64,000 nucleotides of DNA from Rubrivivax sp. (GTDB lineage: Bacteria; Pseudomonadota; Gammaproteobacteria; Burkholderiales; Burkholderiaceae_C), in contig JAXMEV010000013.1 of assembly GCA_046348125.1 (NCBI GenBank), forward strand, positions 23,127-87,126. The letters are read 5' to 3'. Shown in pieces: positions 7,155 through 63,814 of the stretch. The notes under the pieces were generated by a model. It was given only the letters and a program-made list of their open reading frames with translations. It did no database searches and was not told where the DNA came from. Position numbers and translations under genes: made by a program. Within the stretch, counting starts at the first letter, position 1, and the number at the start of each line of letters is the position of its first letter.

Positions 7155-7172
7155 CCGCGCTGCCCCTTCAGT

Positions 7173-7200: not shown

Positions 7201-7228
7201 CCTTCAGCCCAATCCTGAGTCGGCGCGT

Positions 7229-8337
<1,109 letters not shown>

Positions 8338-25141: not shown

Positions 25142-25221
25142 CTCAAGCAAATGTGGCTCTGCCACTTTGCTTGACCCCCACGGGGGGCGGGCTGGGCGCA
25201 GCCCGGCCCTGGGGGCGCTCA
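25142..25221 (-). repeat. ~78-bp palindromic REP/MITE-like element, copy A
   Basis: Reverse complement of the 27362-27440 copy with one mismatch; starts at the asparaginase TGA. Confidence 0.9.
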
Positions 25222-26950: not shown

Positions 26951-27285
26951 TGGACAGGCCCGCCCGCCGCGCGCAGCGCCGGCCCGCCGCGATGAAGTCG
27001 CCCAAGGCCCGCACGGCCGCCGAATGCGAGCGGCTCGAGCAGTTGCCCAACGTCGGTCCGGCGCTGGCCGCCGACCTGCGTCTGCTCGGCATCGCGCATC
27101 CGCGCGAGCTGGCCGGGCGCGACGCCTTCGCGCTGTACCGCGCCCTGTGCCGGGCCAGCGGCCGGCGGCAGGATCCCTGCGTGCTCGACACCTTCCTCGC
27201 CGTCACCGACTTCATGTCCGGCGCCGCGCCCCGGCCCTGGTGGGCCTACACGCCGCAGCGCAAGCTGCAGTACCGCGATCTGTGA
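26950..27285 (+). CDS. Helix-hairpin-helix protein (Cdd1/mitomycin-resistance-like)
   Basis: LEQLPNVGPALAADLRLLGI, DPCVLDTF, WWAYT; TGATG coupling to lexA (alternative start 26992). Confidence 0.8.
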   Translation: MDRPARRAQRRPAAMKSPKARTAAECERLEQLPNVGPALAADLRLLGIAHPRELAGRDAFALYRALCRASGRRQDPCVLDTFLAVTDFMSGAAPRPWWAYTPQRKLQYRDL

Positions 27286-27440
27286 GCGCCCCCAGGGCCG
27301 GGCTGCGCCCAGCCCGCCCCCCGTGGGGGTCAAGCAAAGTGGCGGAGCCACATTTGCGTGAGAGCGCCCCCAGGGCCGGGCTGCGCCCAGCCCGCCCCCC
27401 GTGGGGGTCAAGCAAAGTGGCGGAGCCACATTTGCTTGAG
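27284..27440 (+). repeat. Two tandem copies (B, C) of the ~78-bp palindromic element
   Basis: GAGCGCCCCCAGGGCCGGGCTGCGCCCAGCCCGCCCCCCGTGGGGGTCAAGCAAAGTGGCGGAGCCACATTTGC at 27284 and 27362. Confidence 0.92.
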
Positions 27441-29094: not shown

Positions 29095-30306
29095 CCGGAG
29101 ATGCCGCCGATGAAGCCCGCCTTTGCCTGGGATGACCCCTTTCGCCTCGACGAGCAGCTGAGCGAGGACGAACGCGCCGTGCGCGACGCCGCGCGCGCGT
29201 ACTGCCAGGACAAGCTGCAGCCGCGCGTGCTGCTGGCCGCGCGCCACGAGCACTTCGAGCGCGAGATCATGACCGAGATGGGCGCGCTCGGCCTGCTCGG
29301 CAGCACGATCGAGGGCTACGGCTGCGCCGGCCTCAACCATGTCTGCTACGGCCTGGTGGCGCGCGAGGTCGAGCGCGTCGACAGCGGCTACCGCAGCGCG
29401 ATGAGCGTGCAGAGCTCGCTCGTCATGCACCCGATCCACGCCTACGGCAGCCCGGCGCAGCGTCAGAAATACCTGCCCCGCCTGGCCAGCGGCGAGTGGA
29501 TCGGCTGCTTTGGCCTGACCGAGCCCGACCACGGCAGCGACCCGGCCGGCATGACGACGCGCGCGCGGCCGGTCGACGGCGGCTACCGGCTCACGGGCGC
29601 CAAGATGTGGATCACCAACAGCCCGATCGCCGACGTCTTCGTCGTCTGGGCCAAGCTGGCCGATCCCGACGGCAAAGTGGGCGGCCAGGAGAGCATCCAC
29701 GGCTTCATCCTCGACAAGGGCGTGAAGGGCCTCTCGGCGCCCAAGATCGAGGGCAAGATGAGCCTGCGCGCCAGCATCACCGGCGAGATCGTGATGGACG
29801 ACGTGTTCGTGCCGAGCGAGAACCTGCTGCCCGGCGTGAACGGCTTGAAGGGCCCGTTCGGGTGCCTCAACAAGGCGCGCTACGGCATCGCCTGGGGCGC
29901 GCTGGGCGCGGCCGAGTTCTGCTGGCACGCGGCACGCCGCTACACGCTCGAGCGCAAGCAGTTCGGCCGCCCGCTGGCGCAGAACCAGCTCATCCAGAAG
30001 AAGCTCGCCGACATGATGACCGAGATCGCGCTCGGCCTGCAGGGCTGCCTGCGCGTGGGCCGCCTGCTCGACGAAGGCAAGGCGGCGCCGGAGATGATCA
30101 GCCTGGTCAAGCGCAACAGCTGCGGCAAGGCGCTCGACGTGGCGCGCCTGGCGCGCGACATGCACGGCGGCAACGGCATCCACGACGAGTTCCATGTCAT
30201 CCGCCACATGATCAACCTCGAGACGGTGAACACCTACGAGGGCACGCACGACGTGCACGCGCTCATCCTCGGGCGCGCCTGCACCGGGCTGCAGGCGTTC
30301 TTCTGA
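29095..30306 (+). repeat. Left 1.2-kb direct repeat (gcdH) bounding the island
   Basis: About 14 nt differences by eye versus 62569-63780; identity starts at the CCGGAG RBS and ends at the stop codon. Confidence 0.95.
29101..30306 (+). CDS. gcdH: Glutaryl-CoA dehydrogenase, copy 1
   Basis: [58 protein letters not shown]. Confidence 0.93.
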
Positions 30307-30368
30307 TATTCGGCCATCCAGGGCTGCGATCACTCCTCGCCCGACAGCGAGGACGATGCGCCCGCCGA

Positions 30369-32888: not shown

Positions 32889-33323
32889 CTACTCCTTGCG
32901 GCCGGCTGCGCCGGCCAGCGCCGCGTGGCGCCGCTGCGCGGCTTCGCGCACGAACGAAGAGATCTCGTCGAGCGGCGTGCCGCCCTTGAACACGCGCGCC
33001 ACGCCGGCCTCGGCGAGCAGCGGGATGTCCTTGTTCGGGATCACGCCGCCGACGATCAGCGAGACGTCGGCCAGCCCGGCCTCGCGCAGCCGGGCCGCCA
33101 CCTTGGGCACGACCTCCTTGTGCGCGCCGCACAGCGAGCTCAGGCCGACGACGTCGACCTGTTCCTCGACCGCGGCCTGCACGATCTGCTCGACGCTGTT
33201 GTAGTGGCCGAGGTAGATCACCTCCATGCCCGCGTCGCGCAGCGTCTGCGCCACCAGCCGGATGCCGGCCTGGTGTCCGTCCAGGCCGGCCTTGGCCACC
33301 AATACCCTTGCCTTGCGTTGCAT
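32889..33323 (-). CDS. Cobalamin-binding small subunit 1 of acyl-CoA mutase
   Basis: GLDGHQAG (DxHxxG), SSLCGAH, GGVIP. Confidence 0.92.
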   Translation of the reverse strand: MQRKARVLVAKAGLDGHQAGIRLVAQTLRDAGMEVIYLGHYNSVEQIVQAAVEEQVDVVGLSSLCGAHKEVVPKVAARLREAGLADVSLIVGGVIPNKDIPLLAEAGVARVFKGGTPLDEISSFVREAAQRRHAALAGAAGRKE

Positions 33324-33333: not shown

Positions 33334-35016
33334 TCACCAGGGCAGCCGATAGCCGCCGAAGACTGCCTTCATCGCGTCGGCGATCTCGCCGCTCGTCGCG
33401 CCGACGCGCACCGCCTCGATGATCGGGAAGATCATGTTCGCGTCGTCGCCGGCCGGCCGCGCCGCCACCTGCCGCACCTTGTCGAGCGCGGCAGCCAGCG
33501 CCGCCTGGTCGCGCCGCGCCTTGTACGCGCGCAGCGCCGCGATGCGCTCGTCGACCACCGCCGCCGGCGCGGGCAGGTAGAAGTCCTCGCGCTCGGTGGC
33601 CTCCTCGGGCGGGTAGATGTTGAGCCCGAGCGAGAGCTTCTCGCCCGAGGTCACGCGCGCCACGTGCCGCGTGCCGGCCTCGAGGATCTTCTTGGCGGCG
33701 TAGCCGTTCTTGACGGCCTCGATCATGCCGCCCATGGCCTCGATGCGTTCGAGCTCGGCGCGTGCGCGCTGCTCGACCTCGTGCGTCAGCACTTCCACCG
33801 CGTAGGAGCCGCCCAGCGGGTCGACGATGTCGCACACGCCGGTCTCGAACTGCACCAGCTGCACGCTGCGCAAGGCGGTGATGCTGGCCTCTTCGCTGGG
33901 GATGCCCAGCGGCTCGTCGTAGGTCTTGGGCGTGGCCGACTGGATGCCGGCGAAGGCCATCGCCAGGCAGGCGATGGCGCCGCGCGCGACGTTCATGTCG
34001 CGCGAGTCCTTGATCAGGTCGAGGCCGCCGGTGGACACGCGCACCCAGGGCGCCATCGACTCGGGCTTCCTGGCGCCGTACTGGTCGCGCATCAGGCCCG
34101 ACCACAGGCGGCGGGCGGCGCGCCACTTGGCCACTTCGCACAGGAAGTCGCGATGGTTGACGCAGCCGAGGAAGGAGATGCGCGCCGCGACGTCGTCGAT
34201 GTCGTAGCCGCGGGCCAGTGCGGCGCGGATGTAGGCGGTGCCGGTGGCCATGCCGAACGCCAGCTGGTGCGCTTCGTCGCAGGCCGACTCCTCGTACTGC
34301 AGGCAGCACAGGTTGGACACGCGCGCCTTGGGCATGTGGCGGATGCCGAAGGTGATGACGTCGGTGGCCAGCCGCACCGAGGGGTCGGGCGGGTAGATGA
34401 ACTGGCTGTCGGTGAGGAAGCCCTTGATGATGTCGTTCTGGAAGAAGCCCAGCGTGTCGGCCCAGGCGATGCCGCGCCGTTCGGCCAGCACGCACATCAT
34501 CGCCACCCAGACCACGGCGAGCGGGTTGTTCACCCAGGCGACCGAGATCTTGCTGATGTCGATCGACTCGAGCACCGTCTCCAGATCCTCCAGCGTGGAC
34601 AGCGACAGGCCGGTCTTGCCGACGTCGTCGTAGGCGAGCGGGTGGTCGCAGTCGTAGCCCTGGATGGTCGGCAGGTCGAAGGCCAGGTGCAGGGCCTTGC
34701 TGCCCTTGGCCTGCAGGAGCTTGAACAGCGCGTTGGTCTCCTGCGGCGTCGAGAACCCCATGTACTGCGCCGACAGGTAGTGCTCGCCGCGGTACATCGT
34801 CGGCGTGATGCCGCGCGTGAACGGCGCCTCGCCCGGAAAGCCCAGGCTCCTGCCGTACTCGAAGCCGATCTTCTCGAGGTCGAGCGGCGTGTACAGGCGC
34901 TGGTACGGGATGCCCGAATCGGACGTGAACTCGGGCTTGCGCTCGCGCGCGAAGAGTTCCGAGTGCCGCGCCTCCCAGGCGCGCAGTTCGTGGTCGATGT
35001 CCTTCAGGGACGGCAT
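33334..35016 (-). CDS. B12-dependent acyl-CoA mutase large subunit 2 (highly divergent active site)
   Basis: FPGEAPFTRG, QYMGF, AFDLPTIQGYD, QNDIIKG, DEPLGIPSE, DPLGGSYAVE. Confidence 0.9.
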   Translation of the reverse strand: MPSLKDIDHELRAWEARHSELFARERKPEFTSDSGIPYQRLYTPLDLEKIGFEYGRSLGFPGEAPFTRGITPTMYRGEHYLSAQYMGFSTPQETNALFKLLQAKGSKALHLAFDLPTIQGYDCDHPLAYDDVGKTGLSLSTLEDLETVLESIDISKISVAWVNNPLAVVWVAMMCVLAERRGIAWADTLGFFQNDIIKGFLTDSQFIYPPDPSVRLATDVITFGIRHMPKARVSNLCCLQYEESACDEAHQLAFGMATGTAYIRAALARGYDIDDVAARISFLGCVNHRDFLCEVAKWRAARRLWSGLMRDQYGARKPESMAPWVRVSTGGLDLIKDSRDMNVARGAIACLAMAFAGIQSATPKTYDEPLGIPSEEASITALRSVQLVQFETGVCDIVDPLGGSYAVEVLTHEVEQRARAELERIEAMGGMIEAVKNGYAAKKILEAGTRHVARVTSGEKLSLGLNIYPPEEATEREDFYLPAPAAVVDERIAALRAYKARRDQAALAAALDKVRQVAARPAGDDANMIFPIIEAVRVGATSGEIADAMKAVFGGYRLPW

Positions 35017-35056
35017 GAGCGGGCTCCCAGCGGTTGGAGTTGCGGCATGGCTGCGC

Positions 35057-36862
35057 TCAGGCCGTGAAGATCCGTTCCGGATCGAAGAGCCTGAGCGTGG
35101 CCAGTTCGGTCGTTGTGATCGGCTCGTGGCTGGCGAGCGCGGGCGACGCCTCGAAGGCCCAGCCGCACGACGCGGCGGCGTCCTGCAGCCGTTGCTCGCG
35201 CGAGCGCGTCGGGCCGCCCGCGGCCAGGCGCGTGAGCGTGAACGCCGCCTCGGGGGCCGGCCTTTCGAACACGCCCAGCTGCGTCACCAGCGTGCGCACG
35301 CGCTGGCCCGACGTGGTGACGTAGGGCACTGCGTGCACCAGCCGCCTGGGCGACGCCGTGCACAGCGCCAGCAGCTCGCTGGCGCCGTTGCCGAGGTCGT
35401 TGGCGCCGCCCGAACCCACCAGGAAGGAGCCGTCGGCCTGGCGCGTCGAGTTGATGTTGCCCAGGCGGTCGATCTGCCCGGCGCCGATCACGGCCAGGCA
35501 GCGGTTGCCCGCGCCGCCGGCGAGCACGCCGAGCACGCTCATGAAGCCGGCATGCATCTTGTTCGTGAACATGTTGCCGACGCTGAACAGGTACGGGTCG
35601 CCCAGGCGCGGAACGTAGCCGAAGAAGCCGGCCTCGGCCATCAGCTCGACGTCGACGCCTTCGGCCTGCAGCGTGGAGACGGCCAGCCAGGCCGCGAGAT
35701 TGGCGACGCCGGCTCCGGCGAGCACCGTCGTGTGGCCGCCCTCGCGCACCCTGCGCGCGATCTCGCGCGCGGCGAGGATGATCATCGTCTCGGCTTCGGT
35801 GCCCTGCGCCTGGCGCGCCAGCGTCGGCAGCCTGGCGTCGAGCGCGGCGCGCCAGGCGCGTGCATCGAAGGCCGCGCGCAAGGCGTCGACGCGCTCGGCA
35901 CCCAGCCGCTCGACGTAGGCGGCATGGTCGGCGCAGCCCAGCACCCAGCGGCCGATCCACTCGTCCAGCGCGGCGTCGCTGCGCGTCGCCTCCTTGAATT
36001 CGCGCCGGAACGCGTAGTCCTCGCCGTAGCCGGCCTCGCCAGGGAGGCCGAAGTTCGTCATCGGTTGCGGATGCGCGCCCAGCGGCGCCACCGACACGCT
36101 GCGCACCCGGTGCGCCGGGATGCGCACCAGATGCGCGTGCCGACGGATGAATTCCGACGACACCAGCTTCTCGACGGTGAGCAGCACGCCGCCGGCGCTG
36201 GCGAAGGCGCCCCAGGCTTCCTCGCCGTAGGGCCCGAGCACGATGGCGTTGCCGCCGGCGTCGGCGGCATAGGCGTGGATCACGGCCAGGTCCGGGCGCA
36301 GGGCCTGCAGCACGCCCACGCGCCGCTCGTCTTCGGCGAACGGGTCGCCGACCTCGCGATAGCCGTTGGCCGGCGTCGCCAGCCCGGTGCCGGTGATCGA
36401 TCGCGTGGGCATGAAGGGCAGGCCCATGGCACCGGCCATCAGGCGCGTGGTGATCGTGAGGTTCGTGATCTCCTCGAGCGTGATGCGCCCCGCGGCCAGG
36501 GCGTCGCGGAACACCCGGTTGGGCCCCGGCATGGGATAGGTGTTGCCGGCGTAGGCGGCCGTCACCCGGTTCACCAGCCGCCCATGGACCATGATCAGGC
36601 CGGCCTCCAGGACGCCGGCGGTGATCAGATGGAACCGCGGGTCGGCGCCCCGGAAGCGCCGGATGATCTCGAAGGCCGCCGCATGCGCGCGCGCGTGTCC
36701 GAAGCCCATGTACAGGCTCATGCCCGGGCGCACGAGTGCGGCCACCGCCGAGGCGAGCGGCATCACCTTGCCGTGCCCGTCTTCTGGCGCCGGCAGCGCC
36801 TCGTGGCGGCGCACGACCGCATCGAAGACCGGCTGGGGGATCGAGTCCGTTGCTGCTGCCAT
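35057..36862 (-). CDS. Fused alpha/beta CoA-transferase (glutaconate CoA-transferase-like)
   Basis: AGAMGLPFMPTRS, ALRPDLAVIHA, GAHP (alpha part); MAEAG, GAGQIDRLGNINST, GSGGAND (beta part). Confidence 0.85.
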   Translation of the reverse strand: MAAATDSIPQPVFDAVVRRHEALPAPEDGHGKVMPLASAVAALVRPGMSLYMGFGHARAHAAAFEIIRRFRGADPRFHLITAGVLEAGLIMVHGRLVNRVTAAYAGNTYPMPGPNRVFRDALAAGRITLEEITNLTITTRLMAGAMGLPFMPTRSITGTGLATPANGYREVGDPFAEDERRVGVLQALRPDLAVIHAYAADAGGNAIVLGPYGEEAWGAFASAGGVLLTVEKLVSSEFIRRHAHLVRIPAHRVRSVSVAPLGAHPQPMTNFGLPGEAGYGEDYAFRREFKEATRSDAALDEWIGRWVLGCADHAAYVERLGAERVDALRAAFDARAWRAALDARLPTLARQAQGTEAETMIILAAREIARRVREGGHTTVLAGAGVANLAAWLAVSTLQAEGVDVELMAEAGFFGYVPRLGDPYLFSVGNMFTNKMHAGFMSVLGVLAGGAGNRCLAVIGAGQIDRLGNINSTRQADGSFLVGSGGANDLGNGASELLALCTASPRRLVHAVPYVTTSGQRVRTLVTQLGVFERPAPEAAFTLTRLAAGGPTRSREQRLQDAAASCGWAFEASPALASHEPITTTELATLRLFDPERIFTA

Positions 36863-36922: not shown

Positions 36923-37888
36923 TCAGCCGCCCGCGCCAGCCGCTGCAGCGGGGCGGATGACCTCGGCCGCCGCCTGGCTGGCGGCGGTGTACGGGTCGAC
37001 GCGCCGGCTCGCCAGCGATTCGACGAGCTCGCCGTAGCCGGCCGACGCCTGCAGGCGCGCCATGCCCTGCTCGAACAGGTGCTCGCGCAGCAGCGCGCAG
37101 AAGCGGTCGTGCACGCGTTGCCGCTGCATCCGCTGCCAGCCGTCGTGCTGCTGCAACCGCGCCCGGTGGCGCTCGATCGCCGCCAACAGTTCGTCGATGC
37201 CCTTGCCGCGCGTCGCTTCGGTCTTCAGGACTTCGGGCGCCACCGCCCCGGCCTTCGGTGCGCGCAGGTGCAGCATGGCCTCGAGATCGCGCACCACCAG
37301 GTCGGCGCCCGGCAGGTCGGCCTTGTTGACGACGAAGACGGACGCAATTTCCAGGATCCCCGCCTTGATGGCCTGGATGTCGTCGCCGAGCCCGGGCACC
37401 TGCACGACGAGCGTGGTGTGCGCGAGGCGCACGATGTCGAGCTCGTCCTGGCCGACGCCGACCGTCTCGACGATGACGATGTCCTTGCCCATCGCGTCCA
37501 TCACGTCGACGACGTCGCCCGACGAGCGCGACAGGCCGCCCATGTGGCCGCGCGTGGCCAGGCTGCGCACGAACACGCCGGGATCGCCGGCATGCGGCTG
37601 CATGCGCACGCGGTCGCCGAGGATGGCGCCGCCGGAAAACGGGCTCGAAGGATCGATCGCGACCACGCCGACGCTGCGCCCACGCGCCCGAAACGCCCCG
37701 ACCAGCTGGCTGGTCAGGCACGACTTGCCCGCCCCCGGCGAGCCGGTGATGCCGATCACGTGCGCGCGCCCGGTGTGCGGATAGAGCCGGCGCAGCAGTT
37801 CGCGCGCCTCGGCGATCTCGTCGTCGAGATCGCGCATCAGGCGGGCCGCGGGACCGACCTCGCCGCGCAGGATGGCCGAGACGTCCAC
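36923..37888 (-). CDS. meaB: Mutase-associated GTPase chaperone MeaB
   Basis: GITGSPGAGKS, DPSSPFSGGAILGDRVRM, ETVGVGQ, QAIKAG, NKAD; GTG start inferred. Confidence 0.93.
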   Translation of the reverse strand: MDVSAILRGEVGPAARLMRDLDDEIAEARELLRRLYPHTGRAHVIGITGSPGAGKSCLTSQLVGAFRARGRSVGVVAIDPSSPFSGGAILGDRVRMQPHAGDPGVFVRSLATRGHMGGLSRSSGDVVDVMDAMGKDIVIVETVGVGQDELDIVRLAHTTLVVQVPGLGDDIQAIKAGILEIASVFVVNKADLPGADLVVRDLEAMLHLRAPKAGAVAPEVLKTEATRGKGIDELLAAIERHRARLQQHDGWQRMQRQRVHDRFCALLREHLFEQGMARLQASAGYGELVESLASRRVDPYTAASQAAAEVIRPAAAAGAGG

Positions 37889-37890
37889 GC

Positions 37891-38304
37891 CTAGGGCCTC
37901 ACGAAGTGGTAGGACACGCGGCCGCCGGGCAGGGCTCGGGGCTCCACGCGCAGCGCCATGCCGATCGTCGGGCCGCCGGCGGCGACCTCGGCCGCCAGTT
38001 GGCCGAACACCCGGATGCCGGCGGGGAACTCGACCACCGCCAGCGTGTAGGGCACTTCGTTCTCGAAGCCCGCGGGGCCATAGGCCACGGTGGTGTGGGT
38101 CAGCAGGCGACCGGGGCCCTCGATCGGCTCCCAGGCGAAGGCCTCGCTGCCGCAGCACGGGCAGCCGCTGCGCGGCGGGAAGGCCAGCTTGCCGCAGCCC
38201 GTGCAGCGCGTGGCCATCACGCGGCCCTCGGCGAGGTGGGTCGCGAAGGCCGCCACCTGCGTGTGCGCAACGAAGCTCCGGATGCCGAAGTCGGCGAAGT
38301 TCAT
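37891..38304 (-). CDS. DUF35 Zn-ribbon/OB-fold protein (thiolase partner)
   Basis: RCTGCG..FPPRSGCPCC zinc ribbon then OB fold; ATGA-coupled to the thiolase. Confidence 0.88.
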   Translation of the reverse strand: MNFADFGIRSFVAHTQVAAFATHLAEGRVMATRCTGCGKLAFPPRSGCPCCGSEAFAWEPIEGPGRLLTHTTVAYGPAGFENEVPYTLAVVEFPAGIRVFGQLAAEVAAGGPTIGMALRVEPRALPGGRVSYHFVRP

Positions 38305-39464
38305 GGCCCGTCGCTCCCGAGGATGGTGACGAAGGCATAGATGCCCGGCCCACCCAGGTTGTGCACGAGGCCGATGCGCGCGCCCTCGACCTGGGTGACG
38401 CCCCCTTCGCCGCGCAGCTGGCGCGTGACGGTGCGCAGCTGGCTCAGGCCGGTGGCGCCCACCGGATGCCCCTTGCCGAGCAGTCCGCCGTCGACGTTGA
38501 CCGGAATGCGCCCGCCCAGGCGCGTGTCGCCGGCGCGCAGCAGCGCGACGCCGCCGCCGGCCGGCGCGAAGCCGAGATCCTCGTAGGCGATGATCTCGCT
38601 GATCGTGAAGCAGTCGTGGACGCAGGCGAGGTCGATGTCCTCGGCGCCGACGCCGGCCATGCGGTAGGCCTGCTGCGCGGCGCTGCGGGCGCTGCCGAGC
38701 GACGTGAAGGAGGGACGGTTCGATAGCGTGGCCGAGTCGCTGGCGGCGCCCAGCCCCAGGATCCACACCGGACGATCGCCCAGCCGCCGCGCGGCCTCGC
38801 GCCCGGCGACGATCAGCACCACCGCGCCGTCGGCGTTGGCGCAGCAGTCGAGCATCCTGAGCGGGCTGACCACCGACGCCGACGCCAGCACCTCGTCCAC
38901 CGTGAAGGGCTTGCGGTAGGCCGCCTTGTCGTTGCTCACCGCATAGAGCGAGTTCTTCGCGCGCACTTCGGCCAGATCGGCCTCGCGGGTGCCGTAGGCC
39001 GCCATGTGGGCCTGCGCGAACAGCGCGAAGCCGGCCGGCTGCGTGAGCCCGAAGGGCGACTCCCACATGACGTCGCCGCTGCGGCCCATGCGTTCGGCGA
39101 CCTCGGCCGAAGACAGGTCCGACAGCTTCTGGAAGCCCACCACCGCGACCACTTCGTGCAGCCCCGAGCGGATGAGGCCATAGGCGGTGCGCAGGCCGCT
39201 CGAGCCCGACGAGCACAGCGATTCGACGTTGAACGTCGGCCTGCCGGACAGCCCCAGGCTTTCGGCCACGACGCCGGCCGGGCTGCGCTGGCGGTCGTAT
39301 TCCGAGGCCGAGCAGACCACCAGCGCGTCGATCGCGGCGCCGAGCGCGGCGCGCTCGTGCACCGCCTCGCGAAACGCCGAGAAGCACAGCTCGCCGATCG
39401 AGGCGCCGCTGCGACGCACGAACGGCGTCTGACCGGCGGCGACGATAGCGACTTCCTTTTCCAT
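38301..39464 (-). CDS. Thiolase, SCP2/SCP-x type
   Basis: ESLCSSG (nucleophile Cys), HDCF, GGLLGKGHPVGATG, HNLGG. Confidence 0.9.
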   Translation of the reverse strand: MEKEVAIVAAGQTPFVRRSGASIGELCFSAFREAVHERAALGAAIDALVVCSASEYDRQRSPAGVVAESLGLSGRPTFNVESLCSSGSSGLRTAYGLIRSGLHEVVAVVGFQKLSDLSSAEVAERMGRSGDVMWESPFGLTQPAGFALFAQAHMAAYGTREADLAEVRAKNSLYAVSNDKAAYRKPFTVDEVLASASVVSPLRMLDCCANADGAVVLIVAGREAARRLGDRPVWILGLGAASDSATLSNRPSFTSLGSARSAAQQAYRMAGVGAEDIDLACVHDCFTISEIIAYEDLGFAPAGGGVALLRAGDTRLGGRIPVNVDGGLLGKGHPVGATGLSQLRTVTRQLRGEGGVTQVEGARIGLVHNLGGPGIYAFVTILGSDGP

Positions 39465-39479: not shown

Positions 39480-40370
39480 TCAGCCGGGCAGCTCGGCGAC
39501 GCCCGTGCGCGCGCCGGCCCGGTCGTAGACATACCAGCCGCAGCCGCTCTTGCGGCCCAGCTGGCCGGCCTGCACCTTGCGACGCAGCAGCTCGGGCGGC
39601 CGGAATTTCTCTTCGCCCGTTTCAGCGTAGAGCGCCGCGAGCGCATTGAAGCCCGTGTCGAGACCGACCATGTCGGCCGTCTCGAACGGCCCCATCGGGC
39701 GGCCGAAGCCCAGGCGCATCGCCTTGTCGATGTCGGGCACCGACGCCACCCCGGACTCCACCAGCCGGATGGCCTCGACGTTGCTCGGCAGGTTGATGCG
39801 GTTGAACACGAAGCCCGCGACGTCCTTGTGCACGTGGATGACTTCCTTGCCCAGCGAGCGCACGAAGGCCACCGCGCGCTCGAACGCCGCCTCCGTGGTG
39901 GCCGCGCTGCGGATCACCTCGGCCACCGGCATCAGCGGCACCGGGCTCGTGAAATGCATGCCCAGGCAGCGCTCGGGGCAGGAGGTCGCGGCGGCGATCT
40001 TGCCGATCGGGATCGTCGAGGTGTTGCTCGCCAGGATCGCCGTCGGCCGCGCCAGCCGCTCGAGCGCACGGAAGATCCCCTGCTTGACCTGCAGTTCCTC
40101 GACCACGGTCTCGATGCAGATGTCGCCGCCGGCGCATTGCTCGAGGTCGAGCACCGGCGTGATGCGTGCCAGCACCGCTTCGGACGCGTCGGCAATGCGG
40201 CCCTTGGCATGCAGCTTGGCGGCGGACTCGGCGGTGTTCTTCATGGCCCGCTCGAGCTCCGCTGCGTTCAGGCCCCACAGCCTGACGCGATAGCCGGCCT
40301 GCGCCGCGCATTGGGCGATGCCCTGGCCCATCAGCCCGGCACCGACGACGACCACCAAGTCGGTGTTCAT
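39480..40370 (-). CDS. 3-hydroxyacyl-CoA dehydrogenase
   Basis: GAGLMGQGIA, SNTS, GMHF, GFVFNR, PMGPFETADMVGLD, LGRKSG. Confidence 0.92.
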   Translation of the reverse strand: MNTDLVVVVGAGLMGQGIAQCAAQAGYRVRLWGLNAAELERAMKNTAESAAKLHAKGRIADASEAVLARITPVLDLEQCAGGDICIETVVEELQVKQGIFRALERLARPTAILASNTSTIPIGKIAAATSCPERCLGMHFTSPVPLMPVAEVIRSAATTEAAFERAVAFVRSLGKEVIHVHKDVAGFVFNRINLPSNVEAIRLVESGVASVPDIDKAMRLGFGRPMGPFETADMVGLDTGFNALAALYAETGEEKFRPPELLRRKVQAGQLGRKSGCGWYVYDRAGARTGVAELPG

Positions 40371-42004
40371 CCGCCCTCCTGCGTCACGCGCTTGAAGATC
40401 TCCGCCTCGAGCCGCTTGCGGTCGACCTTGCCGTTGTGCAGCAAGGGCAGCTCGGCGACGTTCTCCACGCGCTCGGGAATCTTGTACTTGGCGAAGCCGC
40501 GGCCGACCAGGTACTCGAAGCAGTCGGACACGCTCATCGTCTGTCCCGCCGCCGGCACGACGAAGGCGCAGACGCGCTCGCCGAACACCGGATCGGGCAT
40601 CTTGACGACCGCGATCTCGCGGATCTTCGGGTGCCCGACCAGCGCCTCTTCCACTTCGGTGGGGCTGATGTTCTGGCCGCCGCGGATGATGATGTTCTTT
40701 TTGCGCCCGACGATGCGCAGATAGCCCTCGGCATCGAGCACGCCCAGGTCGCCCGAGCGGAACCAGCCGTCGGCTCCGAACGAATGATTGCCGTCGCCCC
40801 ACAGGCCGACCGCGCAGTTGGGGCCGCGGTAGACGACCTCGCCGACCTCGCCGGCGGCCAGTGCCGCGCCGTCGTCGTCGGCGATCTTCAGCTCCATGCC
40901 CGCGCACGCCTTGCCCACCGTGTTGAAGACGCGCTCGGCCGGGTCGTCGTACAGGGTGTGGACTGGCGTGCCGCCGTCCAGCGCGCCGTAGGCTTCCATC
41001 AGGCGGCAGCCGAACTTGCGCGCGAACTCGGCCGCCGCCTCGGCGGCGAGCGGTGCGCCGGCGTGGTAGAAGAGGCGCAGCGAGGAAAGATCGAACTCGC
41101 CCAGGCGGGCGCTGTTCATCATCTTGATCATGTGCGTGGGCACGCCGACCGCGACCGTGACGCGCTCGCGCTCGATCAGTTCGAGCGCGGCGTCGGGGTC
41201 GAAGCGCTCGAGCAGCACGTTGCGGCAGCCCGCGATCAGCGAGGCCACGGTGGCCACCGAATAGCCCGTGCCCTGGATCACCGGCGCCACGCCGAGCACG
41301 ACGTCGTCGGGGCGCAGGCGGGCGCGCTCGACGATGTGGTGGCCGAGCGTGAGGAACACGTTGGGCGTGCGCAGCACGAACTTGGGCTTGCCGGTGCTGC
41401 CCGAGGTCGACATCAGGATGTCGATGTCGTTGGCGCTCGGATGGAAGGACAGCAGGTGGCCCGGGGCATGCCGGGTCTCGATCGGATCGGCCAGCATGTC
41501 CTCGAGACAGGCGGCAGCGTCGAACCGGCCGGCGATCGACACCCAATGCGCGACGAAGGGCAGCCGCGCGCGCAGGCCGCGCGCCATTTCGGTGTAGTCG
41601 AAGCCGCTGAAGTGCGCGCAGAAGAAGAAGGCCTTGGCGCCGGTGTCGGTGAGCGCGACCTCGACCTCATGCTCGCGCGCCGTGTAGGCCAGCGGCACCG
41701 GGATGGCGCCGATGCGCGCGCAGGCGAACCGGATGTAGAAGAACTCGACCCAGTTGGGCGTCTGCATGCCGACGCGGTCGCCCGGCCGGATGCCCATCGC
41801 GAGCATGGCCAGCGCGACGCGCTCGGTGGCGCGCTTGAGTTCGGCGAAGCTCACGCGCCGGCGCGCGTCCGAAGCCGCCGTCCGCTCGGGCGTATACGCG
41901 GCGTGGTGGTCGAGATGATCGGCCAGCGTCATGCGGCCCCAGTAGCCGGCCGCGGTGTAGCGGTCGATCATCTCCTGCGTCAGCAGCGAAGGAATCGGCG
42001 TCAT
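40367..42004 (-). CDS. AMP-forming acyl-CoA synthetase (cyclohexanecarboxylate-CoA ligase-like)
   Basis: STSGSTGKPK, YGALD, WFRSGDLG, GRKKNIIIRGG, NGKVDR. Confidence 0.9.
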   Translation of the reverse strand: MTPIPSLLTQEMIDRYTAAGYWGRMTLADHLDHHAAYTPERTAASDARRRVSFAELKRATERVALAMLAMGIRPGDRVGMQTPNWVEFFYIRFACARIGAIPVPLAYTAREHEVEVALTDTGAKAFFFCAHFSGFDYTEMARGLRARLPFVAHWVSIAGRFDAAACLEDMLADPIETRHAPGHLLSFHPSANDIDILMSTSGSTGKPKFVLRTPNVFLTLGHHIVERARLRPDDVVLGVAPVIQGTGYSVATVASLIAGCRNVLLERFDPDAALELIERERVTVAVGVPTHMIKMMNSARLGEFDLSSLRLFYHAGAPLAAEAAAEFARKFGCRLMEAYGALDGGTPVHTLYDDPAERVFNTVGKACAGMELKIADDDGAALAAGEVGEVVYRGPNCAVGLWGDGNHSFGADGWFRSGDLGVLDAEGYLRIVGRKKNIIIRGGQNISPTEVEEALVGHPKIREIAVVKMPDPVFGERVCAFVVPAAGQTMSVSDCFEYLVGRGFAKYKIPERVENVAELPLLHNGKVDRKRLEAEIFKRVTQEGG

Positions 42005-42017
42005 GGCGTCTCGGGCT

Positions 42018-42866
42018 TCAGAATCTGAAGGCGGCACGTGCGGCGCCTTCGAGCAGCTGCGACCTGGCGTCGGGTCTTAGCCCCAGCTGCTCTATCTGCT
42101 CGAGCGAGCCGGGCCAGTCGAGCACCGGAAAGTCGGAGCCGTACATCACCTTGCCGATGCCGCGCCGGGTGTTGAGAAAGGACACCAGCTCGGGCTTCCA
42201 GTAGCGCGGCGCATGCGCGGTGGTGGCGATGTACACGTTGGGGTGCTTCCACGCCACCGCGATCAGCTCCTCCACCCAGGGCCAGCCGGTGTGGGCGCAG
42301 ACGATCCGCAGATCGGGGAAGTCGAGCGCGATCGTGTCGACCAGCATCGGGCGGCCGCACTCGCTGGGCATGGCCTCGGCCGAGTGGCCGATCTGCATCA
42401 CGACCGGCACGTCGAGCTCGGCGCACTTGGCGTAGAAGGGGTAGTAACGGCGATGGTCGACCGGCAGCTCGAAGCCGTAGGGGTGGAGATGGGCGCCGAC
42501 GAAGCCCAGCTCGCGCACCGCGCGCTCGAGCTCGCGCACGCCGGACATGCGCGTGAACGGGTCGATGCCGAACAGCCCGTGCAGCCGCGTCGGGTGCGCG
42601 CGCAGCAGCGCATGGATCTCGTCGGCGCCGAACGACCACTGCATGCGCTGATGGACGAAGGAGCGGATCTGCAGCGCCGGGATCAGCACCTTGTCGATGC
42701 CGTGCCGGTCCATGTCGGCGACGAAGGCGTCGGGGCTGCGGCCGCGCACGCGCTCGGTCAGGCCCCACCACTCGGTCACCTTGCGCTGCTCCTCGTCGTC
42801 GATGTAGCAGCGCCTCATCATCTCGGGCGAGTAGGGCTGATGCCAGATGTCGATCGTTCCGGCCAT
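42018..42866 (-). CDS. Amidohydrolase-2 family protein
   Basis: GFVGAHLHP, YPFYAKCAELDVPV, AHTGWPW, HPNVY, KVMYGSDFP. Confidence 0.88.
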   Translation of the reverse strand: MAGTIDIWHQPYSPEMMRRCYIDDEEQRKVTEWWGLTERVRGRSPDAFVADMDRHGIDKVLIPALQIRSFVHQRMQWSFGADEIHALLRAHPTRLHGLFGIDPFTRMSGVRELERAVRELGFVGAHLHPYGFELPVDHRRYYPFYAKCAELDVPVVMQIGHSAEAMPSECGRPMLVDTIALDFPDLRIVCAHTGWPWVEELIAVAWKHPNVYIATTAHAPRYWKPELVSFLNTRRGIGKVMYGSDFPVLDWPGSLEQIEQLGLRPDARSQLLEGAARAAFRF

Positions 42867-42874
42867 GACCCACC

Positions 42875-43288
42875 TCACCGGCGCGCGCCGAGCTCGGCGA
42901 TGAGGCGCACCGTTTCCGCCAGCGGCACGTCCTGCTCGAAGACGTGGGCCGCGCCGAGCGCCTCGAGTGCCCGCCGGTCCTCCTCCTCGGGGATGAAGCC
43001 GCCGGCGACCACCTTCTTGTCGCCGGCGCCGCGGGCGCGCAGCTCCTGGATCAGCTCGGGCACCAGCGTCATGTGGGCGCCGGAGAGGATGCTGACGCCG
43101 ACCACGTCGACGTCCTCCTGCACCGCGGTCTCGGCGACGTGCGCGACGCGCTGATGCAGGCCGGTGTAGATGACCTCCATGCCGGCATCCTTGAGCGCCT
43201 CGGCGAGGATCTTGATGCCGCGGTCGTGGCCGTCGAGGCCGACCTTGCCCAGCAGCACGCGCATCGTGCGCCTGGCGTTCGTGCTCAT
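42875..43288 (-). CDS. Cobalamin-binding small subunit 2 of acyl-CoA mutase
   Basis: GLDGHDRG, GMEVIYTG, SILSGAH, GGFIP; AAGGAG RBS. Confidence 0.92.
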   Translation of the reverse strand: MSTNARRTMRVLLGKVGLDGHDRGIKILAEALKDAGMEVIYTGLHQRVAHVAETAVQEDVDVVGVSILSGAHMTLVPELIQELRARGAGDKKVVAGGFIPEEEDRRALEALGAAHVFEQDVPLAETVRLIAELGARR

Positions 43289-43332: not shown

Positions 43333-44091
43333 TCAGCGGGGCACGTAGTTGGTGACGCTCCAGCCGCCGTCGACGACCAGCGTGTGGCCGTTGACGAAGG
43401 CGGCCTCGTCGGAGCACAGGAACCACACCGCGTTGGCGATGTCCTGCGGCCGACCGAGCCGCACGAAGGGCGTGGGCTCGGCCACGAGCCGGCGGTAGTA
43501 GGCGTCGTGGCTCAGGCGCTCCTGCGACAGCTGGGTCGGCACGACCCCCGGAGCGACGGCGTTGATGCGGATGCCGCGCGGCCCGTAGTCGGCGGCCATC
43601 TGGCGCGTCAGGCCGATCAGCGCCGCCTTGCTGGCCGCGTACGGCGCCGAGCCCGGATTGCCGAGGATGCCGAAGATCGATGCCACGTGCACGATCGCGC
43701 CGCGCTCGGGTTCGAGCCTGGGCAGCACGGCGCGCGAATAGCGGAACGCCGCGCGCAGGTTGACGTCGAGGAAGCGGTCCCATTCCGCGTCGCTGGTCTG
43801 GTCGGCCGGCTTGGCGTTGCCGATGCCGGCGTTGTTCACCAACCAGTCGACGCGACCGAAGGCGTCGAGCGCCGCGGCCAGCGCGTCCGCCGGCGCGCTC
43901 GGCGCCGTGATGTCCTGTGCCAGCGTGCGCACGCGCTCCGGCTGCCCGCTGGATGCACGGGCCTCCTCCAGCTCGTCGGCCTTCTGGTCGCAGGCCAGCA
44001 CCCGGGCGCCCGCACGCACGAAGCGCTGCAGCGTCGCGCGCCCGATGCCCTGCGCGGCACCGGTGATGATGGCCACTCCGCTCGTCTGCAC
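43333..44091 (-). CDS. SDR family oxidoreductase
   Basis: TGAAQGIG, NNAG, YAASK, NAVAPG; GTG start with GGAG RBS. Confidence 0.9.
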   Translation of the reverse strand: MQTSGVAIITGAAQGIGRATLQRFVRAGARVLACDQKADELEEARASSGQPERVRTLAQDITAPSAPADALAAALDAFGRVDWLVNNAGIGNAKPADQTSDAEWDRFLDVNLRAAFRYSRAVLPRLEPERGAIVHVASIFGILGNPGSAPYAASKAALIGLTRQMAADYGPRGIRINAVAPGVVPTQLSQERLSHDAYYRRLVAEPTPFVRLGRPQDIANAVWFLCSDEAAFVNGHTLVVDGGWSVTNYVPR

Positions 44092-44265
44092 TCGATCTCC
44101 AGTCCGGGCTCGCGCCTTCAAATGCAAGCACCCCGACGCCACCCGATCGTTGCCCCATCAGCCCGCAGCGCCGTATGCGATATCTGGCTCATACGCGAAC
44201 TGCATGTACACATGTATAGCCGCTTTCTGCCAAGTGACGACGAACAACGGGGCAAGTAGGGCGAG

Positions 44266-44464: not shown

Positions 44465-45268
44465 TCACGGCGCCGTCGGCCAGTACTTGGTCTCGCTGAA
44501 GCCGCCATCGACGGCAAGCGTCTGGCCCGTGATGAAGGAGGCGTCGTCCGAACACAGGAACGCCACGGCCGCGGCAACCTCCTCGGGCGTACCGGTGCGC
44601 CCGAGCGGCGTCCCGCCGAGTACGGAGGCCTTGAACCATTCGTTGGACGCCAGGCGCTGGGCCGTCAGGGGCGTCGCGATGGCACCGGGTGCCACCGCGT
44701 TGACGCGCAGACCGCGCACGCCGTAGTCGGCAGCCATCTGGCGTGTCAGCCCGATCACGGCAGCCTTGCTGGCGGCATAGGGCGCACAGTTCTGGAATCC
44801 GCGCAGGCCGTTCACCGAGGCGATGTTCACGATCGCCGCGTGACGCGGCGCCGCCGCCTCCAGGAAGGCCCTGCTCAAGCGCATCAGCGCGCGCACGTTG
44901 ATGCTCAGGTAGCGATCGATGTCGGCGTCGCTGCTGGCGTGCAGTGGCTTGGCGTCACCGACCCCGGCGTTGTTGACCAGCAGCTCGGGCGCACCGAAGC
45001 TCGACCGGCAGCGCTCGACGATGCGCTGTGGTGCCGCGTCGTCGGCCAGGTCGACATCCAGCAACTCCAGACGATCCCGGTCAATGGGCGCACACGACTG
45101 CCGCGTTTGTTGCAGTCCGGTCGCGTCGCGGTCGGTCGCAAGCACGCGCGCGCCTTCGGCCAGCAGGCGCAATGCGATGGCTTGCCCGATGCCCGAGGCC
45201 GCTCCGGTGACGATTGCGTTTCGCTCGGCCAGGCGCTTGGCACCCGGTTGTCCGACGTTGCGCGTCAT
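44465..45268 (-). CDS. SDR family oxidoreductase (paralog of 43333-44091)
   Basis: TGAASGIG, NNAG, YAASKAAVIGLTRQMAADYG. Confidence 0.88.
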   Translation of the reverse strand: MTRNVGQPGAKRLAERNAIVTGAASGIGQAIALRLLAEGARVLATDRDATGLQQTRQSCAPIDRDRLELLDVDLADDAAPQRIVERCRSSFGAPELLVNNAGVGDAKPLHASSDADIDRYLSINVRALMRLSRAFLEAAAPRHAAIVNIASVNGLRGFQNCAPYAASKAAVIGLTRQMAADYGVRGLRVNAVAPGAIATPLTAQRLASNEWFKASVLGGTPLGRTGTPEEVAAAVAFLCSDDASFITGQTLAVDGGFSETKYWPTAP

Positions 45269-45524
45269 GGCCAGCGCCTCCGGTTGCGCACAGCACAGAC
45301 TCCAACCCAGGCCCAGAGAGGCGGAGCGGCGGCAACACCGCCGCGGCTCGAAGGGAACCCGGGGCGCATCGGCGGGCAACGCCGCTCGGCCTGAATCGCA
45401 TTCGCGAACTTCACCATGGATACATGCTTACGAAGCGGAAGACCGATTCTTGATTGACAGGACGGGTATCGTATAGGCGTTTTCCCTGAATCACAGGCTG
45501 CCGTGGACACATAGACTTCACTCT

Positions 45525-51609: not shown

Positions 51610-51625
51610 AGACGGACCGCCGACC

Positions 51626-52849: not shown

Positions 52850-52850
52850 A

Positions 52851-52876
52851 GCGGCTGCGCCCGAGGGCGCAGCCGC
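52851..52876. terminator. Perfect hairpin between convergent OYE and GntR genes
   Basis: GCGGCTGCGCC-CGAG-GGCGCAGCCGC 11-bp stem. Confidence 0.6.
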
Positions 52877-52879
52877 GCC

Positions 52880-60009: not shown

Positions 60010-60528
60010 TCAGTCGCTCGGCCTGCCCACCGTCACCCGGGAAGGCGGCCGTTGCGCCTCGCGCAGGATCTGCCGCGCCTCTTCGCTGCCGTCGAGCAGG
60101 CGGTTGGTGCGCTTCATGACGCGCCATCCCTCGCCCTCGAAGCGCCGCAGGTCCCAGCGCGAGGCGATCAGGCGCACCAGCACGAAGCGGCCGTCCTCGC
60201 GCGCGTACAGGGTGCCGTAATGGGTGGCGGTGGCGCGGTCGCCCTCGATCACGACGTGCGCCGGCGTGCCGGCGTGCGCCGAGCCCTGCCGCACGAGCTG
60301 CCGGTGGAAGTCGGTCTCGTAGACCTGCCGCATGCGCTCGTGGCCCTCGTAGCGGTCGATGCCGCCGACGTCGTAGACGCAGTCCTCGTGCCAGGCGCCC
60401 AGGATCTCGTCGACGTTGCAGCTGTCGGCCGCCGGGCCGTAGGCGGCGATCAACTGCTGGATCTCGAGGTGATCCTCGAGGCGGCGCAGCCGCTGCTCCA
60501 GCGTCAGCGCTTCGGGTGTCAGCTTCAT
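60010..60528 (-). CDS. NTF2/SnoaL-like domain protein
   Basis: LEQRLRRLED..EI.QL..Y...D, H.....V.IEGDRA, W....R pattern. Confidence 0.8.
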   Translation of the reverse strand: MKLTPEALTLEQRLRRLEDHLEIQQLIAAYGPAADSCNVDEILGAWHEDCVYDVGGIDRYEGHERMRQVYETDFHRQLVRQGSAHAGTPAHVVIEGDRATATHYGTLYAREDGRFVLVRLIASRWDLRRFEGEGWRVMKRTNRLLDGSEEARQILREAQRPPSRVTVGRPSD

Positions 60529-60572
60529 CGTGGGCCTCGGCTATATCGCATCACGTCACGGACGCAGGGCAT

Positions 60573-60584
60573 TGTGTATACACA
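60573..60584. promoter_or_regulatory. Palindromic operator TGTGTATACACA (putative GntR site)
   Basis: Perfect 12-bp palindrome in the SnoaL/racemase divergent promoter. Confidence 0.65.
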
Positions 60585-60758
60585 CCGATGCCGCCGTGCC
60601 CGGGGATTACCCGTTGCGAACGCCGGCCTGGCAACGCGAACCGGAGGGCATGTGTACGTGATGCGGCATCGCGAGGGCCTGTCCGCCTGCGTCGCGCCGC
60701 TGGCCGGCGCCGCGACCGGTTCATCCCGTCGCTGATGCGCGGCTCCCGGGTCCGACTC

Positions 60759-61562
60759 ATGGCATTGCGCATCTGGTTCCAGTCGACGGTCGAGATCGCC
60801 AGCTATCACAGCTACCGGCAGGCGCTCGAGGCCCAGTTCGTGCTCGCGGCGCCCGAAGTCGAGGTGGCGCTGCACGGCGTGCCCGAGGGCACCTGGGGCG
60901 GCCTGTCACCGAGCCAGGTCATGCACGCGCCCTACGCCAACCACAAGATCCTCAGCGACGTGCTGTTCGAGCAGCTGCGTCGCGCCGAGCGCGAGGGCTT
61001 CGACGCCTTCGTGCTGGGCTCGTTCACCGAGCCGTGGCTGCGCGAGCTGCGCTCGCTCACCGACCTGCCCGTCGTCTCCACCGCCGAGGCCGCGGTGCAC
61101 GTGGCCTGTTCGGTGGCGCACCAGTTCGCCCTCGTCACGATGAACGTGGAGAACGAGTGGTTCCAGCGCGTCAACATGCAGGCGCGCCGTCTGGATGGCC
61201 GCATCAGCGGCATCTACGTCGTGCGGCCCGAGGCCACCGAGCGCGAGATCGACTCCCTGTTCACCGATCCCTCGGCCTATCTGGCGCGCTTTGCCGAGGT
61301 GGCGCGCAGCGCGATTGCCCAATGCGCCGATGCCATCATCCCCTCCGAGGGCCTGGTGGCCACGGTGGTGGCGCGCAGCGGCCTGAAGGAAATCGACGGC
61401 GTGCCGATCGTCGATCCGATCGCCGCGGCCGTCCTCTATGCCGAGATGCTCGCCAAGCTGCACCGGCGCACCGGCCTCAGACCGGGGCGCCGCTGGCACT
61501 ACGCCAAGCCGACCGCCGCCGTGCAGGCCTTCATCGACGGCAAGCGCCGCGGCATCGGCTGA
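60759..61562 (+). CDS. Asp/Glu/hydantoin racemase family protein 1
   Basis: MALRIWFQS, AEREGFDAFVLGSFTEP, ELRSL.D.PVVS, DGVPIVD. Confidence 0.8.
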   Translation: MALRIWFQSTVEIASYHSYRQALEAQFVLAAPEVEVALHGVPEGTWGGLSPSQVMHAPYANHKILSDVLFEQLRRAEREGFDAFVLGSFTEPWLRELRSLTDLPVVSTAEAAVHVACSVAHQFALVTMNVENEWFQRVNMQARRLDGRISGIYVVRPEATEREIDSLFTDPSAYLARFAEVARSAIAQCADAIIPSEGLVATVVARSGLKEIDGVPIVDPIAAAVLYAEMLAKLHRRTGLRPGRRWHYAKPTAAVQAFIDGKRRGIG

Positions 61563-61627
61563 CGCCGCCTGCCGCCTGACTCTGCCCATCCGCCCCGCCC
61601 ATCTGCCCTGCCCACGAAGGCAAGCCC

Positions 61628-62413
61628 ATGAAGATCTGGTACCAGTCGACGCTCAACTTCGCACACCACCCGAACTACGAGAAGGCCCTCGCGGCGCACT
61701 TCGAGCGCGTCGCCGGGCCCGACACCGAGGTCGTCCTGAACGGCCGCAAGACGGCCTTCGGCAGTGCGCTCGGCACGCACGACGTGATCGGCTCGCCGAT
61801 CATGTACCACGCGATCGTGGCGCCGGCCTTCGTCGAGTCCGTGCTGGCCGCGGAGCAGGCGGGCGCAGACGCGTTCGTGGTGGCCTCGTTCAGCGAGCCC
61901 ATCCTCCCCGAGCTGCGTTCGCTGGCCGGCATCCCGGTGGTGTCGATGCCGGAGGCCTGTTTCATGGCGGCGGCGATGAGCGCACCGCGCGTCGGCTTCG
62001 TCACCCTCAACCGGCTGGTCATCCCCTACATCGAGAAGTCGATCGCCCTGCACAAGTGGAAGGAGCGCGTGAGCGGCGTCCACCTCATCCAGGGCGAGGT
62101 CTCGGAGGCCGAGCTCGACACCAAGTTCGCGGACCCCGGCCCCTATCTCGATCGCCTCGTCGCCGGCGCACGCGAGGCCATCGCCGCCGGTGCGCAGGTG
62201 GTGATTCCCGCCGAGGGCGTGCTGGGCGTCATGGCGGCCGAGAACGGCCTGCGCGAGGTCGACGGCGTCCCCGTCATCGACGCCATCGGCACGCCGATCC
62301 TGGTGGCCGAACTCGCGGTCGCGCTGCGCCAGCGCACCGGGGTCGCACAGAGCCGGGCCGCCTACCGGGCGCCGAGCGCCGCGGCGCGCGCGCTTCTCGT
62401 CCCCGGTCGCTGA
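61628..62413 (+). CDS. Asp/Glu/hydantoin racemase family protein 2
   Basis: MKIWYQS, AEQAGADAFVVASFSEP, ELRSL..IPVVS, DGVPVID. Confidence 0.8.
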   Translation: MKIWYQSTLNFAHHPNYEKALAAHFERVAGPDTEVVLNGRKTAFGSALGTHDVIGSPIMYHAIVAPAFVESVLAAEQAGADAFVVASFSEPILPELRSLAGIPVVSMPEACFMAAAMSAPRVGFVTLNRLVIPYIEKSIALHKWKERVSGVHLIQGEVSEAELDTKFADPGPYLDRLVAGAREAIAAGAQVVIPAEGVLGVMAAENGLREVDGVPVIDAIGTPILVAELAVALRQRTGVAQSRAAYRAPSAAARALLVPGR

Positions 62414-63780: not shown

Positions 63781-63814
63781 TTCGCCCGACGCCGCCGGCA
63801 GCCAGCGCACCACG

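Follow-up and report, generated by a model that had tools for sequence, protein, structure and literature searches.

Few B12-dependent acyl-CoA mutases have been characterised, and their substrate specificity is generally read from positions 89 and 207 of the large subunit. Methylmalonyl-CoA mutase (MCM) needs Arg207 together with Tyr243 and His244, the latter two being aids to acyl migration and radical control; ethylmalonyl-CoA mutase (Ecm) also keeps Arg207, and isobutyryl-CoA mutase (ICM) and IcmF are marked by Phe89 and Gln207. In a 64,000-nucleotide stretch of Rubrivivax sp. DNA (contig JAXMEV010000013.1; herein the window, to which all coordinates refer), a gene at 33334..35016 on the minus strand encodes an MCM-family large subunit of 560 residues with no internal stops (L2), accompanied by a second large subunit (L1) and two small, B12-binding subunits (S1 and S2). 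L2 lacks Arg207, and its substrate is likely to be new with respect to the known members of the family and may be a free molecule and not a CoA ester. Glutamate mutase (1CB7, 6H9E; PMC8473912) is already known as a split-subunit B12 enzyme that rearranges the carbon skeleton of a free acid; at 12–13% identity to L2 and a Z-score of about 24 it does not belong to the same family, and it would be a functional analogue only if the CoA-free reading holds.

L2 belongs to the family of MCM large subunits (PF01642, 466.8 bits with a cut-off of 22.1; TIGR00641, 469.5 bits with a cut-off of 303.8) and carries the signature of none of MCM, 2-hydroxyisobutyryl-CoA mutase (HCM), ICM or the MCM beta subunit. 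Its best sequence match is HCM (HcmA/HcmB with MeaH, 4R3U; E 2.3e-107, 35% identity by fold), with which it shares split large and small subunits, a G-protein chaperone, ligase, dehydrogenase and thiolase neighbours and the absence of Arg207. However, HcmA has Ile89, Asp116, Gln207, Tyr243 and His244 where L2 has Tyr, Ala, Asp, Leu and Gln, and L2 is accompanied by a second large and a second small subunit. MCM alpha subunits (1REQ_A, human 2XIJ, M. tuberculosis 6OXC_A) have the fold in common with L2 (Z-scores of 45–53) and the MCM-type Tyr89 is present, but Arg207Asp, Tyr243Leu, His244Gln, Arg87Ala, Gln330Ser and Asn366Lys separate L2 from them (Arg207, Tyr243-His244, Gln330 and Asn366 being parts of the MCM signature), as does a B12 subunit encoded separately. 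The barrel of MCM beta subunits (1REQ_B, 6OXC_B) is also homologous to L2, and these proteins, like L2, lack Arg207 and His244 and adjoin a paralogue that keeps both; the match is nevertheless far weaker than that to the alpha subunits (E 4.5e-26 against 3.9e-83; TM-scores of 0.66–0.71 against 0.93). ICM and IcmF (4XC6) likewise lack Arg207, and the same radical chemistry is expected of them and L2, but the ICM-type proteins that we encountered combine Phe89 and Gln207 with a canonical tunnel where L2 has Tyr and Asp, and L2 scores only 167.9 bits on the IcmF model NF045497 (cut-off 1500). No description of the L2 subfamily was found in the literature searched, which included few subscription papers.

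Residues are numbered as in P. shermanii MCM, by alignment of 1REQ_A to L1 and transfer to L2 through an alignment of L1 with L2 that has no gaps in the barrel; the motif regions are also gap-free in direct alignments of L2 with human MCM, M. tuberculosis MCM and HcmA. A preliminary description of the gene, made by eye, had reported that Arg87 is lost and Tyr89 kept, that Asp stands at position 207, and that Leu and Gln replace Tyr243 and His244. Both routes of alignment bear this out: position 207 is Asp and neither Arg nor Gln, and position 244 is Gln and not His. The first of these sites, Ala83 to Tyr85 (equivalent to Arg87 to Tyr89; 34762..34770, minus strand, as are all L2 sites given here), lies on barrel strand 1, Asp203 (Arg207) is encoded at 34408..34410, and Leu239-Gln240 (Tyr243-His244) at 34297..34302. 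Further changes are Arg82Glu, Thr85Leu, Ser114His (His110, 34687..34689), Thr195Phe (Phe191, 34444..34446), Asn236Arg, Arg326Trp and His328Arg (Trp324 and Arg326 on strand 7, 34039..34047), Gln330Ser, Ser335Asp and Asn366Lys. The last opens a segment from Lys364 to Glu368 (33913..33927) that ends in the equivalent of Glu370, a residue present in 371 of 376 homologues, and the MCM residues Tyr89, Gly91, Phe117, Gln197, Glu247, Gly333, Asp369 and Glu370 are all retained.

An alignment or assembly error behind these unusual residues is ruled out by the gap-free alignments, by their invariance among orthologues (below) and by a contig from a public sequencing run, possibly from the same organism or sample, that is identical over 33691–35402 (0 differing letters). 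Thirteen of the 21 listed public runs that match the stretch are RNA runs, and the four examined yield contigs that span the flanks as well as the cluster, so they do not demonstrate expression. An AlphaFold2 model of L2 built from a 148-sequence alignment has a mean pLDDT of 95.2 and finds its best fold match in HcmA (4R3U; TM-score 0.94, Z-score 53.9, root-mean-square deviation 1.4, 548 residues aligned); it supersedes a model from a 22-sequence alignment, whose barrel was unreliable (mean pLDDT 64.3). Because the larger alignment consists mostly of other family members, the model is biased towards the family fold and the match says little about activity.

A homologue search in which the 7998 best candidates were scored returned 21 full-length L2 proteins at 69–95% identity and one fragment, after which identity drops to at most 45%. 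Asp207, Leu243, Gln244, His114, Phe195, Trp326, Arg328, Asp335 and Lys366 are invariant in all 22, so that the unusual active-site residues are conserved, without the unconstrained drift that had been considered for them. Arg occupies position 207 in 273 of the 376 aligned homologues, against 26 that have Asp and 20 that have Gln, and 23 of the 26 proteins with Asp are the L2 clade and a sister sequence of about 50% identity (P0227), which also has Gln244, Trp326 and Arg328 as in L2, but Ile89 and Cys366; a deeper search for Asp207 relatives beyond the L2 orthologues found this sister sequence only. Named carriers of L2 include Rubrivivax, Ramlibacter, Rhodospirillales, Thermodesulfobacteriota and Gemmatimonadaceae metagenome-assembled genomes, and the gene is patchy, with no match at E 1e-150 in any of 60 relatives of the source genome. 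For the proteins P0376, P0014 and P0137 the longest contig is 56155 bases in each case, so that a single contig may carry a third large subunit, with Val207 and from the L2 sister group, beside an L1/L2 pair.

The preliminary description assumed a CoA ester as substrate and overlooked that the pantetheine (CoA) tunnel is rebuilt in both L2 and L1, a difference that may matter more than the change at Arg207. We measured conservation at residues that we take to line this tunnel or to touch CoA or cobalamin. Of the 13 tunnel residues of MCM (Thr85, Arg87, Ser114, Ser164, Thr166, Thr195, Arg326 and His328 among them), only four are kept in L2 and three in L1, against 11 in HcmA and 10–13 in canonical clusters, so that L2 departs from the tunnel that acyl-CoA mutases typically conserve. 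In the L2 model, these tunnel positions fall within the eight barrel strands or at their termini. At 14 inward-facing strand positions, counted for the 337 of 376 rows that are gap-free, 99 proteins with canonical signatures (mostly MCM-type kin) have 9–14 MCM residues and a side-chain volume of 1616 ± 27 Å3 (maximum 1722), against 2–4 residues and 1849–1898 Å3 in L2 orthologues and 2–3 residues and 1870–1977 Å3 in L1 orthologues, these volumes being sums over side chains and not tunnel geometry.

Clustering of 465 of 479 proteins yielded 13 clusters of at least three members, three with the canonical and ten with a rebuilt tunnel. Between canonical clusters (three pairs only) tunnel identity is 0.85 at an overall identity of 0.49, whereas between rebuilt clusters (45 pairs) it is 0.24 at a similar overall identity of 0.47, and within rebuilt clusters the tunnel consensus frequency is 0.85–1.00; Gly91, Glu247, Gly333, Asp369 and Glu370 are kept in 13 of 13 clusters. 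Since a shared cosubstrate should hold the tunnel positions fixed, their variation between rebuilt clusters and constancy within them is the behaviour of specificity residues. The L2 orthologues hold the presumed acyl-CoA contacts invariant no more often than background positions (8 of 13; p 0.36); the five that vary, 75, 85, 87, 283 and 285, are distal contacts to CoA, and Arg82 has become an invariant Glu. A tree inferred without the trait columns (38 hand-picked rows, quick search, midpoint root) gathers 25 of 26 rebuilt-tunnel rows in one branch (SH-aLRT 95), inside which L1 falls in an Arg207-keeping and L2 in an Arg207-lacking sub-branch (SH-aLRT 99 each). We put forward, tentatively, that L1 and L2 represent a large and so far unstudied branch of proteins with the MCM fold, in which CoA has been abandoned and the tunnel turned into a specificity pocket, allowing B12-dependent 1,2-acyl shifts on free ketones or oxo-acids, with L2 charge-reversed at the carboxylate site in addition.

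For L2 itself, the reading that we prefer, with a probability of roughly 45%, is that of an active B12 radical isomerase acting on a free, polar carbonyl compound that is not bound to CoA. L2 would pair with one of the two small subunits to form an adenosylcobalamin radical isomerase, in which the small-subunit His would bind cobalt and Glu370 and Tyr89 would assist homolysis of the Co–C bond; the adenosyl radical would then take a hydrogen from the substrate, and the carbonyl (acyl) group, held by Gln197 and Gln244, would shift 1,2. His114, Phe195, Leu85 and Trp326 would occupy the pantetheine space of MCM, a free carboxylate would be bound by Arg328 and Lys366, and Asp207 would hold a hydroxyl or NH group at the site that takes up the carboxylate in MCM. 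L1, with Tyr89, Arg207 and His244, could carry out an analogous step on a carboxylated oxo-compound, for example a 4-oxo acid. The product would then be reduced, activated and cleaved by a short-chain dehydrogenase/reductase (SDR), ligase, 3-hydroxyacyl-CoA dehydrogenase and thiolase; such a route would account for the outcome of a scan of 38 open reading frames (ORFs) of the window, in which neither a crotonase nor an acyl-CoA dehydrogenase family turned up, bar two flanking glutaryl-CoA dehydrogenase-like copies. From the sequence, the amino- or hydroxyl-bearing substrate first suggested for Asp207 is plausible, but a hydroxyl or keto compound fits the context better than an amine, because the cluster ORFs scanned yielded neither an aminotransferase nor an ammonia-lyase family; an amino-acid substrate was ranked low for lack of an aminotransferase among the same ORFs.

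The preliminary description left open whether L2 has a new specificity or is a non-catalytic partner like MCM beta, and of these the former is supported and the latter disfavoured by the residues kept, by substitution rates and by the conserved small subunits. Judging from its sequence, L2 is very probably catalytically active. Gly91, Phe117, Glu247, Gly333 and Glu370, which presumably serve the cobalamin and adenosyl side, are present and invariant in all 22 orthologues; invariant positions are over-represented among the presumed cobalamin contacts (11 of 12) and in the barrel interior (19 of 23) relative to a background of 217 of 411 (Fisher p 0.005 and 0.002, values that are descriptive only since the 22 orthologues are kin and not independent). 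Moreover, the ratio of nonsynonymous to synonymous substitution rates in L2 is 0.046–0.199 and no higher than that of L1 in six of six pairs (rough NG86 estimates). Two alphaproteobacterial MCM pairs behave differently, with 81% identity between the alpha and 43% between the beta subunits, and both betas (the beta label being backed for one of them) lack Tyr89, Gly91, Phe117, Gln197, Glu247 and Glu370, all six of which L2 retains. As true betas thus lose cofactor-side residues and diverge fast and L2 does neither, it is improbable that L2 serves L1 as a catalytically inert partner in an MCM-like heterodimer, with its new polar residues forming barrel-plugging salt bridges. The beta model TIGR00642 (cut-off 617.25) moreover gives L2 a score of only 123.5 bits, the two small subunits, both conserved, keep the cobalt-binding His in an intact DxHxxG motif, and within the 35 kb examined in another genome (G188) a rebuilt-tunnel relative comprises a single large and a single small subunit. 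A partner role would nonetheless account for the simultaneous loss of Arg207, Tyr243 and His244 and for the gene order, L1 coming after L2 and S1 in all eight loci that extend so far; Asp207/Lys366 and Arg328/Asp335 could form internal pairs, the first of which could plug the active site, and loss of the Arg207 equivalent kills human MCM (R228Q, activity undetectable; PMC10356863). These losses also count against the CoA-free isomerase that we favour.

Other observations weigh against that isomerase too, and several of them would suit an acyl-CoA mutase of new specificity, which is the main competing reading although we consider it rather unlikely: such an enzyme would, like HCM, yield a 3-hydroxyacyl-CoA, starting from a branched acyl-CoA that carries a hydroxyl or other polar group; Asp207 would bind that group, and CoA would still thread through a remodelled tunnel. 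We know of no precedent for a CoA-free reaction in the MCM family, and none was found in the literature searched. The L2 cluster is rich in CoA enzymes, the ligase, CoA-transferase, 3-hydroxyacyl-CoA dehydrogenase and thiolase being conserved neighbours, and the G188 relative adjoins a ligase 46% identical to that of the window. L2 keeps Gln197, Arg or Lys at 283, Gln361 and Ser362 and has gained the invariant Arg236 and Arg328, whose basic side chains could offer a new means of holding the CoA phosphates, and HcmA is its closest solved relative by both sequence and fold. According to PMC13188929, the cluster for 2-hydroxyisobutyric acid has the same core (ligase, mutase, auxiliary protein, 3-hydroxybutyryl-CoA dehydrogenase and thiolase) around a mutase whose substrate is a CoA ester, and the absence of crotonase and acyl-CoA dehydrogenase families from the ORFs scanned over 30369–62413 matches the HCM layout described there; an acyl-CoA substrate would explain this absence equally well. 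The limits noted above, of summed volumes, of a canonical sample made up largely of MCM-type kin and of three canonical cluster pairs, also lessen the case for a CoA-free substrate. On the other hand, HcmA and the canonical clusters maintain the tunnel across several active-site signatures, and the tunnel positions differ among the rebuilt subfamilies where CoA binding should fix them. It is very unlikely that L2 is instead a radical enzyme that moves or eliminates a hydroxyl or amino group, as diol dehydratase and ethanolamine ammonia-lyase do, with Asp207 as acid/base: replacement of His244 and Tyr243 while the homolysis residues stay would suit it, as would the many SDRs in the cluster, but Gln197 is kept, position 244 is still a hydrogen-bond donor, and all of the characterised sequence relatives found are carbon-skeleton mutases.

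If the CoA-free isomerase is correct, the label "methylmalonyl-CoA mutase" is wrong for a whole branch of database proteins, and B12 radical chemistry reaches free ketones and oxo-acids, with a bearing on biodegradation and biocatalysis. Should the wider proposal of a CoA-independent branch hold, B12 enzymes would gain a new reaction class, and 4-oxo or quaternary-carbon compounds a new degradation route in wastewater bacteria; with a cyclic substrate, the reaction would be a biological counterpart of the Dowd–Beckwith ring expansion or contraction. The L2 subfamily is directly testable, being conserved, with a signature unlike that of any solved member, and located, in several bacterial classes, within a defined catabolic cluster.

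Both small subunits reported in the preliminary description are real and contain DxHxxG. In S1 (32889..33323, minus strand) and all of its 9 orthologues examined, the cobalt-binding His is followed by Gln-Ala and not by the usual Asp-Arg, a motif possibly co-adapted to one large subunit, and S2 (42875..43288, minus strand; 45% identical to S1) has the usual Asp-Arg in 7 of 7. Both lie on the mutase contig in five of five genomes checked, and the genome G063 has exactly three large-domain and three B12-domain matches. L1 (31193..32884, minus strand) keeps Tyr89, Arg207, Tyr243 and His244 and has Arg366 along with its rebuilt tunnel; its 39% identity to L2 and the separate sub-branches disfavour a recent duplication. 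A search of 401 + 401 genomes for L1-type genes without L2 gave no match beyond the seed genomes and G188 (52%). Gene order (L2-S1, and L1-SDR-S2 in loci L010 and L013) hints at the pairs L2/S1 and L1/S2; complex prediction of L2 with S1 or S2 scored 0.20 against a mark of 0.32 and was counted neither for nor against any reading.

In the direction opposite to transcription, the minus-strand run of the window comprises an SDR directly after L1 (30369..31181), L1, S1, L2, a fused family I CoA-transferase closest to glutaconate CoA-transferase 1POI (35057..36862), the G-protein chaperone MeaB (36923..37888; TIGR00750, 324 bits with a cut-off of 240.75), an OB-fold/zinc-ribbon partner (37891..38304), an SCP2/archaeal-type thiolase (38301..39464), a 3-hydroxyacyl-CoA dehydrogenase (39480..40370), an AMP-forming ligase whose closest solved relatives are aryl-carboxylate AMP ligases (40367..42037), an amidohydrolase-2 family protein with family-level matches only (42018..42878), S2 and two further SDRs (43333..44142 and 44465..45379). 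Across 12 related loci, two of which (L008 and L016) are near-identical, S1 follows L2 in 9 of 9 and L1 follows in 8 of 8, an SDR follows L1 in all six that reach so far, and the CoA-transferase directly precedes L2 in ten; the S2-amidohydrolase-ligase block varies in placement and is always close. The source genome holds separate genes for a canonical MCM (L001), an HCM-like mutase and IcmF (L007).

The rebuilt-tunnel mutase of G188 (L055:7253-16594; 52% identical to L1) is surrounded by a crotonase, its small subunit, the related ligase, a UbiD decarboxylase and an Old Yellow Enzyme, and its locus is a second, different pathway for the rebuilt-tunnel branch. One amidohydrolase-2 protein is a ring-cleaving beta-diketone hydrolase (PMC11780191), and the window protein is from the same family; by analogy, this precedent and the G188 neighbours hint at cyclic substrates.

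A glutaryl-CoA dehydrogenase-like gene occurs in direct duplicate (29095–30307 and 62569–63781; 98.8% identity over 1213 bases) on either side of the catabolic region of about 32 kb, whose GC content of 0.66–0.73 is below that of most of the upstream part, a pattern that points either to integration of an island at this gene or to a repeat in the assembly. At L012:147-2172, a plasmid-type RepB partition gene and a serine recombinase lie directly beside the cluster, suggesting mobility. Inside the island, at 51509–53599 and 60010–60528, are genes for an Old Yellow Enzyme (also in L011), a GntR regulator (also in L017) and a SnoaL-like protein. Two hydantoin-racemase-like genes on the plus strand (60516..62413; compare L011:210-1001), with family-level matches only and relatives in L011, L013, L018, L049 and L057, have Ser and Glu at the usual catalytic Cys sites; both Cys are kept in the relatives of L013 and L018 and one in that of L049.

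Further non-canonical mutase large subunits were noticed in the source genome, L005 (G000:C4:315598-317142) and L003 (G000:C12:29629-31173), one with Leu89 and Gln243 and the other with Tyr89/Arg207 and a pocket of Ile328, Gly330 and Cys366; both keep most tunnel residues. A very divergent large subunit elsewhere (L050; G062:C13, ~5900–7500) is without Tyr89, Gln197 and Glu370 and adjoins its own B12 subunit. Two tandem 78-nucleotide intergenic repeats in the window (27281–27436; 97% similarity), of which an inverted copy seems to lie near 25184 (~25150–25230), resemble repetitive extragenic palindromic (REP) elements.

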